Shown here in pieces: positions 14 through 4,292 of a DNA stretch of 4,292 bases (positions within the stretch are counted from its first letter, which is position 1; every line of letters begins with the position of its first letter). This DNA is from a virus. Lineage: Duplodnaviria > Heunggongvirae > Uroviricota > Caudoviricetes. The notes beneath the pieces were generated by a model. It searched no databases, had not been told where the DNA came from, and saw nothing but the letters and a program-made list of their open reading frames with translations. A program made the translations under genes and the position numbers. Where the stretch lies: the IMG/VR virus record IMGVR_UViG_2671180636_000002. One strand, written 5' to 3'.

Positions 14-1170
14 TTAACTGATCGGCATTACACCACCGGGACGCGGATTCATATCTTCCAGGTCGCGGCAGTCATTGGAAGAGTAAATTCCCCAGTTGAT
101 CCCGGTGGCGTAGGCTTCAAAACGGGACTTCATATCCCCGCGCAGTAACGCCCCGGCGTTAAATTTGGCGTAATAAACGCCCTGCTTACTTTTTCGTACC
201 AGTCCGGTGTTGATCCGCTGTTCGATGCGGGTCAGATACGGCACCAGTGAATAGTTGATAAATCCCAGCCCCAGCTCTTCGATATTGTTGAAGGTGGCGC
301 GATCGGTGTTCTGCACCATGTGCAACGGCACCCGGAACAGACGACAGATTTCTTCCAGCTGAAACTTGCGGGTTTCCAGGAACTGACTGTCCTCGGCGTT
401 CAGCGCCATCGACTTCCAGTCCAGCCCCATTTCCAGAATCATCGGGCGGTGAGCATTGCCAAGCCCCGTGTGACACTCCTCAAAATCTTTCTTCAGACGC
501 TCGTAAGCATCCGGCGTGAGCTTTTGTTCCGTACGCAACACACCGGATGTCACCGCACCATTACTAAACAACCTGGCACCGTGCTCCTCGGTTGCCGCTG
601 CCAGTGAAATGGCCTCACGCGCATACGCAATGGGATTCAGCCCGACAAGTCCATCCAGCGTCAGGGTGCGCACATGCCAGATTTCATTCTGGGTCAACAC
701 ATCCACGGAACCATCCGGAAACGTCACCTGATAAACCGGCTGCCACTGGCTGTTCAGCTTCGGTTCCACACAGCCCGGATCTATCGGAAGAAGCTCCACC
801 ACTTCTCCCAGTGCCTTTACCTTGTAGGCGTAAAAATTCCCCCGTAGACACAGGCAGACAATAACCAGCTCCCAGAATTCCTGCGGTGTCATGTAGCCAT
901 TAGGTTTTGCCGAAACCAACTTATGCAGTCGTTCATCCACCGCCCGTGTTTTCAGGGTACCGCTGATTTTGTAGAGACTGCAGGGCAGCATACCAACAGA
1001 CTCTGCCAGCACCCTGACGCAAGAATAGACCGCCGTCAGGCGCATGGCCCGCTGGCTACTGATCCGCTTTCCGGTATAGGTGTCGTATGACAGCCCGATA
1101 GCATCAGCAGTTCTGCTGGCGTGGTCACCGGCACATCGCTTTTTCGTTGAAATAATCCCGAAAAGAACAC
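14..1170 (-). CDS. Phage portal protein, HK97-family-like; 5' end unresolved (possible frameshift near the N-terminus)
   Basis: Long minus-strand ORF with stop TAA at 16..14, immediately downstream of terL as expected for a packaging module. The block AMRLTAVYSCVRVLAESVGMLPCSLYK near the N-terminus resembles the conserved N-terminal block of HK97-type portals as I recall it. The track ORF extends to a TTG at 1261, but 1171..1261 in that frame reads [16 protein letters not shown] (not protein-like) and overlaps a well-supported small ORF. There is no ATG/GTG/TTG in the body frame between 1170 and the conserved block. A GTG at 1170..1168 with GGAGG 6 nt upstream lies in a different frame. Confidence 0.85.
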
Positions 1171-1352
1171 TATTTACCTCCGCCGACAGACTGCCGTGTA
1201 CGGTCGAGATATCGCGCCACCAGCCACGACCAGAACAGGCACAGCGCCCCGGCAACAACAAAACCCGCCGGGGGATAAATCAGCCAGGCACCATACGCCA
1301 GCAAAAGCGCACCCAGCACGCCCACCAGAGGCGCGAGAATCAGCATGATCAT
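1170..1352 (-). CDS. Hypothetical small membrane protein (60 aa, two predicted transmembrane helices)
   Basis: ATG at 1352..1350 preceded by GAGG with a 5-nt spacer (minus strand TAACTGAGGTAATTATG), starting 11 nt after the terL stop. Translation [60 protein letters not shown] has two hydrophobic stretches and a charged tail. Codon choice is enteric-like (ctg, gcg, gtg, ggc). Its stop TAG at 1172..1170 overlaps a GTG at 1170..1168 by one base. It exactly fills the terL-portal gap. Confidence 0.55.
1177..1181 (-). promoter_or_regulatory. Shine-Dalgarno-like GGAGG 6 nt upstream of GTG at 1170 (candidate portal initiation site)
   Basis: Minus strand GGCGGAGGTAAATAGTG; the GTG overlaps the TAG stop of the small ORF by one base. 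Confidence 0.4.
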
Positions 1353-1363
1353 AATTACCTCAG

Positions 1364-3097
1364 TTAAAGCGAGCGGATCCCGTAGGACTCAATGTGGTCA
1401 GACAGCGTGTCTTCTTTCTCGTACAGCATGGCTCTGCCAACCGCCATAATCAGCGCAACTGCACCATCGATTTTGTTTTCCGCCTGCTCTTTGACGGGTT
1501 TCACCACATCATCGTTACCCGGCATGTTTTTGCCGACCACGTTGCCGATACACCAGGTCATGATGGGATTGCCGTCATGATGAAAACGTCCCGATTCAAT
1601 CGCTGCTTCCAGCTCTTTCATCGGATCGGACATATTGGTGAAGTTCTGGACGATAGTGACGGGATTCAGGTCTTCATCAGCAAGGTCATGTGACAACCCG
1701 GTCGCCCCGAAGGGGTCGATGGGTGACTCACTGACCGGGCTGATTTTGTTCGCCGCTTTGGCCTCCTCGAGGATGTAGCGATAATCCACCTCCGCACCAT
1801 CGGTAACGGTCAGAACGCCCATTTCCACCCATTTCTGAAAGCGTTCGGCTGTCCGTCGATCTTCATTTTTCTCGACGCTGTACACCGTGTCATACGGTAC
1901 CCAGAAACGCGGGGCCACACTGTAGTAATGCGTTTTACCGTCAATCTCGCGGGTATAAAGTCGCGCCATGCTGTTCATATCCAGCTTACGCGCCAGGTCA
2001 AAGGCCAGAATGCACGGCTGCCCCTCGAACTGCTCAAGGGTCAGTGATTTATCCTCGCAGCTCTGCCAGCTCACCAAGTTGAAATACGCCGAACGCGCCG
2101 ACACCCAGATATTGAGGTGTTTTGTTTTAAAGACGTTTGCCAGACGGGCGTTATTTTTCGCACGCTGCTGCTGACTTAACAAAAATTCGCGATAAACCGA
2201 CACGCCAATATTTGGATTGGCTTTTTCCAGCACCTGCGGGCCGGTCCAGTCGTCACCTTCATCAACGGTATAGATGATCCCGAACAGTTCATCGTTAGGC
2301 ACCGAGCCGTTGAGCATCTCGATGACTTCCCGCCGCTTGTCGTAGCACGGCCCCTCAATGTTGTACCCGGCGGTGGTGATGGCCCACATCAGTGGCTGAC
2401 GTCGCGCCCCCATCCCGGTAAGCATTGTGGTATAAAGCGCATCGGTGGCATGCTCGTGATATTCATCAACCACGGCACAGTGGGGTGATGAACCATCACC
2501 TGGGTTGCCGATCAGCGGTTCAAACCGCGCGCCATCCTCCGGACGGTTCATGTTTGAGGCGTTAACCTCAATCCCGAACGCTTCCGTCAGCATGGGTGTG
2601 CGTTTACACATCAGTCGCGCCGGGCGAAAGACTTCCCACGCCTGTTTCTCTGTCGTGGCACCGGAATACACTTCCGCGCCAAACTCGTTATCACAGGCAA
2701 AACAATACAGGGCAACACCGGCAGAGATTGCTGATTTGCCGTTCTTACGGGGGATTTCGGTGTACACCTCCCGGAAGCGGCGCAACCGGGTGCCTTTATT
2801 GACCCAGCCAAACGCACAGCAGATCACAAATAGCTGCCACGGCTCCAGCGTGATGGGCATCCGTTTGAATGCCCACTCCCCCTTGGTGTGCGGCAACAGC
2901 TGAATAAATTTCGCGGCCCGTTCAGCCAGGTCCTTGTCGAAGCGGTAACGAAACGACTTACTTTTTTCCGCCATCAGGTCATCAAGATGGCGCTGGCAGG
3001 CCTGAATCACAAACTGGCAGGCAACAATCTTTCCGCGCACGACATCCCGGGCATACTGATTTGCAGCATTTACGTTGGGGTAAGATTTCCGGCTCAT
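1364..3097 (-). CDS. terL: Phage terminase large subunit (TerL; ATPase plus nuclease)
   Basis: 577-aa ORF, ATG at 3097..3095, stop TAA at 1366..1364. P-loop-like EIPRKNGKS at about aa 115-122; hydrophobic stretch ending in acidic residues AVVDEYHE (Walker B-like); C-terminal acidic motifs ILAFDLA and [12 protein letters not shown] consistent with an RNase H-like nuclease domain. Size and position directly downstream of a small terminase fit TerL. Confidence 0.92.
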
Positions 3098-3588
3098 GAT
3101 TCGATAATTTTCAGAAACGGGTTAGTGGCTTTCTTCTGCCCCGCCAGGCCAATCAGACGCTGGCGGCTGCTGGGGTCGAGTCCGAGCATTGCCCCCGTGC
3201 TGCTCATCTCGGACTCCTGTTCTTTTTTGGCGGTCAGCTCCGGATTTTTGACCCTGCCGCCCATTGCACCGGTGATGGTGTTGCCCTGTATGGCAATATT
3301 TTTCACGGCACGTCGCCAGAACTCATAGGCCACGCACCACCGCTCAAGTACCGCCAGGTCAGTCACGCACAGCAGGCCCTGACCGCAGAGTTCTTTGGTT
3401 GTCAGTTGCCACATGATCGTGGCGAGAGGGAGATCTTCTTCAGCGAACCACTCTGGTGGCTCAACACCTTTGATGGGCGTAAAAACAGGTTCATCTTTGT
3501 TCAGGGCTCGCTTGCCGGGGTTTCCGGCCAGCGCCTTGCGCGCCGTTGGCTTGGGGCGACGCCCGGAACGCCCCGCCGTTCCAGCCAT
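3094..3588 (-). CDS. terS: Phage terminase small subunit (P27-family-like TerS)
   Basis: N-terminus [36 protein letters not shown] matches the GR.GR.PKPTA.K.L.GNPGKR.LN..EP signature I recall for P27-family small terminases. ATG at 3588..3586 is preceded by AGGAG (3601..3597) with an 8-nt spacer; the GTG at 3597 used by the ORF track overlaps the SD and is unlikely to be the start. Stop TGA at 3096..3094 overlaps the terL ATG (ATGA). Confidence 0.9.
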
Positions 3589-3596
3589 ATGCGGCA

Positions 3597-3601
3597 CTCC
3601 T
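3597..3601 (-). promoter_or_regulatory. Shine-Dalgarno AGGAG for terS
   Basis: Minus strand AACCAGGAGTGCCGCATATG; 8-nt spacer to ATG at 3588. Confidence 0.6.
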
Positions 3602-3627
3602 GGTTAAATTTCATTTTTCGCGGGTAT

Positions 3628-3687
3628 AAAAAAACGATGGGGCGGGCAGTCCGGAAGACGTCAGGTCACAGGGATTTGCCCCGCCCC
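3628..3687 (-). other. GC-rich imperfect inverted repeat followed by a T7 tract on the minus strand; candidate cos site or terminator-like hairpin
   Basis: Plus strand GGGGCGGGCA (3639..3648) and TGCCCCGCCCC (3677..3687) form an 8-9 bp G/C stem around a 28-nt loop that contains the palindromes GACGTC and TCCGGA. On the minus strand the stem is followed after 4 nt by TTTTTTT (plus A-run 3628..3634). It lies in the 121-nt HNH-terS intergenic region. Confidence 0.3.
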
Positions 3688-3709
3688 TCCCTACAAGTGA
3701 GAATAATTA

Positions 3710-4115
3710 TCACCGGATTCGTTCGCGCGCTGTTTTCGCTTTATGGCAGGGNNNNNNNNNNNNNNNNNNNNNNNNNNNNNNNNNNNNNNNNNNNNNNNNN
3801 NNNNNNNNNNNNNNNNNNNNNNNNNNNNNNNNNNNNNNNNNNNNNNNNNNNNNNNNNNNNNNNNNNNNNNNNNNNNNNNNNNNNNNNNNNNNNNNNNNNN
3901 NNNNNNNNNNNNNNNNNNNNNNNNNNNNNNNNNNNNNNNNNNNNNNNNNNNNNNNNNNNNNNNNNNNNNNNNNNNNNNNNNNNNNNNNNNNNNNNNNNNN
4001 NNNNNNNNNNNNNNNNNNNNNNNNCACCGCGATGTTTATCGCAGTAACCCGAACTGTCTGTGGTTGTACCTGCACATCCACGCTTACGGCAGGCACGTGG
4101 GATTAGTGATGGCAT
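3710..4115 (-). CDS. Phage HNH endonuclease (packaging-associated), interior masked by N-run
   Basis: ATG at 4115..4113 preceded by GAGG (4124..4121) with a 5-nt spacer. Visible N-terminus MPSLIPRACRKRGCAGTTTDSSGYCDKHRG is Cys/His-rich and zinc-finger-like, typical of terminase-associated HNH proteins. Visible C-terminus ...PCHKAKTARERIR with stop TGA at 3712..3710 resembles the second half of an HNH motif. The two ends are in different frames across the N-run, so the coordinates are the span, not a verified ORF. Confidence 0.7.
3752..4024. other. Run of 273 N (masked or unsequenced gap)
   Basis: Directly visible in the sequence; falls inside the putative HNH endonuclease gene. Confidence 1.
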
Positions 4116-4157: not shown

Positions 4158-4292
4158 CTACTTAATGCACTGAGTGCGGATATACTCCTGTGCCCCTTCC
4201 AGTTGCATCTGCATCGTCATCAGCCGCTCTCTGAGGGTGAAATAATCCCGTTCAGCGGTGTCTGCCAGTCGGGGGCTGGTTGCATTATCCAC
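4158..4292 (-). CDS. Partial CDS, C-terminal 44 codons of an unidentified upstream phage gene (continues beyond window end)
   Basis: Minus-strand frame open from the window edge, reading ...VDNATSPRLADTAERDYFTLRERLMTMQMQLEGAQEYIRTQCIK, stop TAG at 4160..4158. Ends 42 nt upstream of the HNH start and is co-oriented with the operon. No recognisable family from this fragment. Confidence 0.45.
   Translation of the reverse strand: MDNATSPRLADTAERDYFTLRERLMTMQMQLEGAQEYIRTQCIK

Follow-up and report, generated by a model that had tools for sequence, protein, structure and literature searches.

The 121-nt gap between an HNH endonuclease gene and the small terminase gene terS in the stretch of DNA analyzed here (4,292 nt in all, hereafter the window) is most probably, at roughly 90%, the cos site of a temperate phage of the SfV/SfI type, which resides here as a prophage and packages its DNA in the way HK97 does. 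The cos identity of such a region is already known from the literature on Shigella phage SfI, and a specialist would find nothing surprising in the cos proposal as it was first made. What is added here is a three-part anatomy of the site and a set of testable assignments for its parts. The analysis fixes the genome ends for a prophage family whose cos region (3560–3752) has matches in 1188 of 5426 complete Escherichia coli genomes. It also shows a distance of 7 nt between the mapped overhang and the point at which the database records of SfV and SfIV begin.

All genes of the window lie on the minus strand, in the order HNH–cos–terS–terL–portal that is also found in SfI, SfV, SfII and SfIV. The gap, 3589–3709, extends from the HNH stop codon (3712–3710) to the ATG of terS (3588–3586). 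The features of the window are, with their coordinates:

3710–4115, minus strand: HNH endonuclease gene, readable only at its ends (4115–4025 and 3752–3710).
3692–3709, minus strand: non-conserved spacer from the HNH stop codon to the cos footprint, a mosaic boundary with information of about 0 in 57 relatives, among which alternative spacers occur.
3669–3691, minus strand: upstream cos element, defined by conservation, with the G-rich box GGGAGGGGCGGG (3691–3680) followed by GCAAATCCCTG; it holds the right arm of the inverted repeat (3677–3687).
3653–3668, minus strand: variable spacer (0.1–1.0 bit) that forms part of the loop and holds GACGTC; the SfV and SfIV records start within it, at 3655.
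3649–3652, minus strand: GGAC directly 5' of the overhang, with 1.75 bits at A and 2.0 bits at C.
3639–3648, minus strand: cohesive end (cosN core) 5'-TGCCCGCCCC-3', by identity with the SfI run-off gap; probably a 10-nt 3' overhang, and at the same time the left arm of the repeat.
3604–3638, minus strand: downstream, cosB-like element, defined by conservation and proposed as the TerS site, consisting of ATCG, a run of seven T (T7, 3634–3628) and ATACCCGCGAAAAATGAAATTTAA (3627–3604).
3597–3601, minus strand: Shine-Dalgarno sequence of terS, AGGAG, as seen in the DNA itself.
3094–3588, minus strand: terS, small terminase of the P27 family, 164 aa (Pfam Terminase_4).
1364–3097, minus strand: terL, large terminase, 577 aa (Pfam TerL_ATPase and TerL_nuclease), with an ATGA overlap with terS.
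1170–1352, minus strand: 60-aa hydrophobic ORF between terL and portal (phrog_502, 'membrane protein', E 2.8e-28).
About 1261 to the window edge, minus strand: portal gene (Pfam Phage_portal).

The middle of the HNH gene is masked by a run of 272 N (3753–4024). This run is 55 nt longer than the homologous 217 nt of the nearest relative (L019, 520–736), so that the two visible ends of the gene are out of frame with each other (4115–3710 measures 406 nt). The visible ends are identical to the first 30 and the last 14 residues of a 116-aa ORF in L019, which matches the Pfam HNH family (PF01844, E 1.6e-16) and phrog_144, and it is through this ORF that the gene directly upstream of cos and terS is identified as an HNH endonuclease. 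RefSeq annotation at the matching E. coli loci gives the same pair, HNH and P27 terS. The only PDB sequence match of the window TerL is the TerL of HK97 (6Z6D, E 5.4e-26, residues 80–556). The GGAG of the terS Shine-Dalgarno sequence is kept in those relatives whose terS starts nearby. On the far side of the HNH gene, positions 4158–4292 (minus strand) encode the C terminus of an Rz-type spanin and agree fully with the end of an L019 ORF (81–386) in which an Rz1-like lipoprotein ORF is embedded at 142–324. Thus, a lysis cassette lies directly upstream of the HNH gene. At the other end of the window, the 60-aa ORF is unannotated in SfV, where the portal CDS is drawn over the same stretch in another frame, suggesting that the portal start may be mis-annotated.

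The identification of the region rests on its close kinship with mapped phages. In megablast searches against phage records the window is 96–98% identical to Shigella phages SfV, SfI, SfII and SfIV. When SfI virion DNA was sequenced outward from both ends, the run-off reads left a 10-nt gap relative to the prophage, 5'-TGCCCGCCCC-3', and the authors concluded that this phage of Shigella flexneri uses cos packaging (Sun et al. 2013, PMC3636060). The 10-mer is the reverse complement of window positions 3639–3648, which means that the left arm of the inverted repeat is the cohesive end itself. It stands in the window with the same flanks as in the SfV and SfI group and upstream of a P27-family terS. 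Positions 3586–3655 are identical to SfV, and the whole segment from the cut to terS is likewise identical in the SfI group. On window coordinates, the database records of SfV and SfIV start at 3655 and that of SfI at 3638, directly after the overhang, so that all three genomes were linearized inside the 121-nt gap. A preliminary description of the window had proposed a cos site of an HK97-like phage between the HNH gene and terS. The SfI-mapped end, the linearization points of SfV and SfIV and the homology of TerL to that of HK97 all bear this out.

Some differences within the group are also apparent. The G-rich box ends in GGGTCA in SfV and in GGGGCA in the window, and the spacer after the HNH stop codon differs between the two. 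The ends of SfI were mapped on virion DNA, whereas the window copy is a prophage known from its sequence. Position 1 of the SfV (U82619.2) and SfIV records is not a physical end, as it lies 7 nt upstream of the SfI-mapped overhang. The SfI authors mention a one-base difference (T versus A) from the published SfV cos (PMC3636060); no such difference was found in the SfV record. In E. coli, matches to the cos region are found in at most four places per genome, with 15 places on plasmids.

To describe the anatomy of the site we compared 57 distinct cos regions from Enterobacterales, Comamonadaceae and phages of Pseudomonas, Moraxella and Burkholderia. The alignment is anchored on CCGCGAAA and contains no gaps; the anchor expression, together with the requirement for TTTT, inflates columns 3614–3623 and 3629–3632, while the other peaks are unbiased. 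Three blocks are conserved gap-free, namely, the G-rich box with AAATC (3669–3691), GGAC with the overhang (3639–3652) and the T-run with ACCCGCGAAAAATGAAATTTAA (3604–3634). Outside 3604–3691 conservation is nil among the 57 relatives, and on the terS side it ends at 3603. On the opposite side, the edge of the functional unit is marked by position 3691, exactly where many E. coli matches are interrupted. In the central block, information peaks at the AC (3650–3649) and at the first four bases of the overhang, YGCC, and declines over the 3' half of the overhang. Alignment with cos regions of related phages had been suggested as a check on the cos proposal, and its outcome, a block-wise conservation far beyond chance, is favorable to it.

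The feature that first drew attention to the region was an imperfect inverted repeat, and its elements are all present as described, including the 121-nt intergenic region in which they lie. The arms GGGGCGGGCA (3639–3648) and TGCCCCGCCCC (3677–3687) form eight perfect pairs, a bulge and two further pairs around a 28-nt loop (3649–3676) with the palindromes TCCGGA (3650–3655) and GACGTC (3657–3662), and on the minus strand the arm is followed by ATCG and then by the T7 run. The preliminary description considered that the hairpin and the T7 run might form an intrinsic terminator or attenuator on the minus-strand transcript, separating HNH from the terminase genes; the lysis genes would then fall on the HNH side. 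This is an unlikely explanation, even though the element lies at a gene end and in this lineage can form a GC-rich RNA stem (−27 kcal/mol), the extended form of which ends next to U7. The minimum free energy, a calculation that the description had itself proposed, is ordinary for the composition (z −0.62 versus dinucleotide shuffles, 54 of 200 of which fold at least as well). The loop measures 28 nt, the T7 run starts 4 nt after the arm, a promoter and terminator consensus scan returned no site in the gap and an Rfam scan of 3400–3752 returned no match at E ≤ 1. A perfect stem of at least 8 bp arises in 6.7% of 2000 dinucleotide shuffles of the 121-nt region. Nor is the stem kept among the 57 relatives. 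Its ten pairs are formed in 61.4% of cells, compared with 62.8 ± 0.9% after shuffling (476 of 500 shuffles reach as high a value) and with 65.4% for partners displaced by −1; on the same alignment, 0 pairs are predicted by RNAalifold. Changes confined to one arm go uncompensated in close relatives (L025, L073, L084 and L065): among loci with a TerS at least 99% identical, some carry GGGGGAGG in place of GGGGCGGG with the overhang unchanged, and one has CCTC in the overhang with the other arm unchanged. The T-run and the ACCCGCG block are conserved as a pair, also in sequences that have no stem. Since the pairing is neither unusual nor conserved, the terminator reading is left without support. 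Late transcription in lambdoid phages continues through cos and on into the head genes, and a strong terminator at this position would therefore be counter-productive.

The repeat might instead be recognized as such, either as a cruciform or through two nuclease protomers sitting on the arms, with cutting between or at the arms as in a lambda-type cosN. Both arms fall within conserved blocks and their complementarity reaches 10 of 11 in this lineage, but the geometry makes this explanation very unlikely. The mapped overhang is one entire arm (3639–3648) and lies off the symmetry axis, whereas the other arm belongs to the separate G-rich box about 31 bp upstream, so that the lambda-like symmetric core suggested at the outset has to be abandoned. 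The Klebsiella, Xenorhabdus, HK97, Burkholderia and Gamma relatives keep both blocks but have lost the complementarity of the arms, with no compensating changes, and the DNA fold is unexceptional (z −1.09 versus dinucleotide shuffles). Headful (pac) packaging, with the region as a mere intergenic spacer, has a negligible probability: we found no points in its favor, and it is opposed by the homology of TerL to the cos-type TerL of HK97, by the adjacency of HNH and terS with deeply conserved non-coding blocks, which argue for a specific site, and by SfI virion DNA, which has defined ends at this very sequence (PMC3636060). Under the cos reading, the hairpin itself is not functional but incidental: what makes an inverted repeat here is solely that, in this lineage, the C-rich overhang is by chance complementary to the G-rich box.

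The position of the cut can be followed across mapped phages. AC precedes the overhang in one register in all of them (a slash marks the cut): GGAC/TGCCCGCCCC in the window and SfI, TGAC/CGCCGCCAAA in HK97, GGAC/CGCCCGCTTC in the Burkholderia type and GTAC/CGCCGCCCC in Gamma. Together with the first overhang bases, YGCC, the AC forms an AC/YG edge. A first pairwise alignment had given a 3-nt offset of the cut relative to HK97, which was rejected in view of the common register of GAC and overhang in the four mapped phages. As to polarity, HK97 has a 10-nt 3' overhang, CGCCGCCAAA, and the Burkholderia phages phi644-2 and phiE125 have 10-base 3' extensions, 5'-CGCCCGCTTC-3'. The outward SfI reads show a gap and not an overlap, which implies recessed 5' ends and thus 3' overhangs. 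The SfI paper states no polarity, so the 3' polarity of the overhang in the window is inferred from this gap and by analogy with HK97 and phiE125.

The AC/YG edge points to the HNH protein as a likely nickase. Ten phage HNH enzymes encoded next to cos sites were characterized as strand-specific nickases, with sites including AC^CG (Gamma), RAC^CR (phi105) and AC^CSG (Xu and Gupta 2013, PMC3592412). The window-type HNH, represented by the L019 ORF, aligns from end to end with the Gamma nickase N.phiGamma, N-terminal zinc ribbon included, at 38% identity (E 1e-16). In the Gamma genome an AC^CG site lies exactly at the edge of the 9-nt end repeat, and the AC/YG edge of the overhang matches the nick specificity of this homologous enzyme. 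It counts against the match that the nick site in the window would be AC/TG, compared with the preferred AC/CG. If the overhang is a 3' one, the strand complementary to terS has to be nicked exactly between AC and YG, and it is there that we propose the HNH nick. Concatemeric DNA would then be cut with a 10-nt stagger, leaving 5'-TGCCCGCCCC-3', presumably 3'-protruding. HNH would probably nick the plus strand between 3648 and 3649 (CA/GT), at the AC/YGCC edge, and TerL would nick the minus strand between 3639 and 3638. The assignment of the first nick to HNH is tentative, for the literature says only that each of the two enzymes might cut one strand and describes their division of labor as unresolved, and HK97 gp74 and a Skunavirus HNH were reported to be non-specific when assayed alone. 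The prediction that follows is that HNH nicks at AC/YG.

The downstream element is the most informative part of the region: the stretch 3633–3604, comprising the T-run and ATACCCGCGAAAAATGAAATTTAA, is its information maximum, although some of these columns are inflated by the anchor. The block does not vary even in relatives whose terS DNA has dropped to about 78% identity. Xenorhabdus and Photorhabdus have about 60 nt more between it and the ATG of terS, yet it lies at the usual distance from the cut. Because its distance is fixed relative to the cut and not to the start codon, the block belongs to cos and not to the terS leader. The extra nucleotides of the Photorhabdus and Xenorhabdus loci (L114, L117–L131, L137 and L139) contain a conserved CTTTCACTGTTTTTGA motif of their own.

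A role for this block is suggested by HK97, where TerS binds CTAACCCGATTTTTT at +15 to +29 downstream of the cut, with Arg128 recognizing the C:G pair at position 21 and Arg7 placed in the minor groove, and where a 9-bp A-tract is essential; the bound TerS ring stalls the motor and thereby places the cut site in the TerL nuclease (PMC11331095). In the window the overhang is followed by ATCGTTTTTTTATACCCGCGAAAAATGAAATTT, with ACCCG and then A/T tracts at +14 to +33. The highly conserved ACCCGCG and AAAAAT at +14 to +26 resemble the HK97 TerS site in sequence, and the cos region aligns with the HK97 cos junction with a score of 78, versus 44.5 ± 5.9 for shuffled sequences. R7-S8 occurs both in HK97 gp1 and, within the N-terminal arm, in the window TerS; the latter has S141-R142 where its C-terminal helix starts, the former S127-R128. 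Between the two proteins BLASTP detects no similarity and the predicted folds have weak to moderate similarity. Searches of the window TerS against the PDB gave 0 matches by sequence and no significant match with Foldseek.

Additional support comes from a survey anchored on HNH genes. The same upstream half, from the G-box to GGAC/YGCC, is joined there to three different downstream blocks, and the type of the block agrees with the N-terminal type of TerS (three types) in 27 of 27 loci; as the classes were defined after seeing the data and the block is physically linked to the adjacent terS, this agreement supports the assignment as a TerS site without proving it. Within each of two pairs of loci, L178 with L180 and L226 with the window, the HNH-side half of cos is shared from the G-box through the spacer and GGAC into the first part of the overhang, but the downstream blocks and TerS families differ. 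Such combinations indicate that mosaic joints lie at or within the cohesive end itself. Judging from the sequence, the T-run, ACCCGCG and the A/T tracts (3604–3634) would probably serve as the docking site of the small terminase ring, the T7 run being most likely a part of it. The corresponding prediction is that TerS docks on ACCCGCG and the A-tracts.

The upstream element is similarly constrained. Among the 57 relatives the G positions of the box carry 1.6–2.0 bits and the AAA 1.1–1.7 bits (AAAT at 3677–3674), and the distance from the box to the cut is fixed. From the end of the box to the AC/YG edge it amounts to 31 nt both in the window and in Bacillus phage Gamma, and HK97 (GGGGGGGGGATCAAATC) and a Burkholderia phage have a G-box at a similar distance. 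In the HNH-anchored survey, a box 25–38 nt upstream of AC/YGSS and downstream of the HNH gene is present in 38 of 77 distinct loci; two controls gave 0 of 77 each. That the box might form a G-quadruplex was considered and dropped, as most relatives have only three G-tracts. By its position, the G-box with AAATC may be analogous to cosQ of lambda, which is needed for bottom-strand nicking at termination according to the title of the paper cited for it. We suggest by this analogy that 3669–3691 could serve the HNH/TerL nuclease complex as a cosQ-like element for positioning or termination. It is predicted that the G-box 31 bp upstream is required for HNH-dependent cos cleavage. The papers searched yielded no description of the box, which is weak evidence that it is undescribed; a literature search with the motif sequences gave nothing but primers of no relevance.

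Taken across phyla, these observations allow a broader reading, which we put forward tentatively and at somewhat less than even odds. The cos site would be modular: its upstream half, with the G-box about 31 bp from AC/YG, would travel with the HNH enzyme, which would nick the strand complementary to terS at AC^YG; its downstream half would be specific to the type of TerS; and recombination at the cohesive end would shuffle the two halves between phages. The literature searched contains no description of such an architecture. If true, it would answer the question of which nuclease cuts which strand.

Among known systems, HK97 shares with the window a 10-nt overhang after GAC, a G-run with TCAAATC about 30–40 bp upstream, ACCCG with an A/T tract downstream, a homologous TerL and an HNH gene (gp74) upstream of cos. 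It differs in the overhang itself, CGCCGCCAAA, in the position of ACCCG, which lies 4 nt further from the cut, and in the approximately 300 bp between the HNH gene and cos. Burkholderia phages phiE125 and phi644-2 have their 10-base 3' extensions, CGCCCGCTTC, in the same register, and the related Burkholderia phage vB_E438 has the same G-box, GGAC and a TTTTCACGCCCGCGAAAT block, an adjacent HNH gene and a TerS that is 50% identical. The Burkholderia type differs in the 3' half of the overhang, in the spacer and in the host. In Vibrio phage H2 (L091), the TerS of which is 49% identical to that of the window, terS starts only 6 nt after the HNH stop codon, so that the cos of this phage must lie elsewhere, and it was left out of the cos comparison.

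Bacillus phage Gamma has a G-box, GGGTAGGGGCGGG, 31 nt upstream of AC/CGCCGCCCC, with the spacing of the window, but its end repeat measures 9 nt and its downstream block is another one. Pairwise BLAST finds no similarity between the TerS proteins of Gamma and the window; Gamma TerS is annotated in its record as matching TIGR01558, which we take to be a P27-family model. In phi105 (L159/L161) the AAATCCCT motif is accompanied by a C-rich box in place of the G-box, and 1 nt separates the annotated 7-nt cos from the RAC^CR site of the phage's own HNH. With lambda the site shares a three-part logic, cosQ–cosN–cosB being matched by an element upstream, a site of nicking and a small-terminase site downstream. 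Lambda has 12-nt 5' overhangs, a symmetric cosN, the Nu1/gpA terminase, IHF sites and no HNH; none of these features recurs in the site as read here. In the window the overhang is a single arm away from the axis and the terminase proteins are of P27 and HK97 type. The likeness to lambda is thus one of analogy and not of membership.
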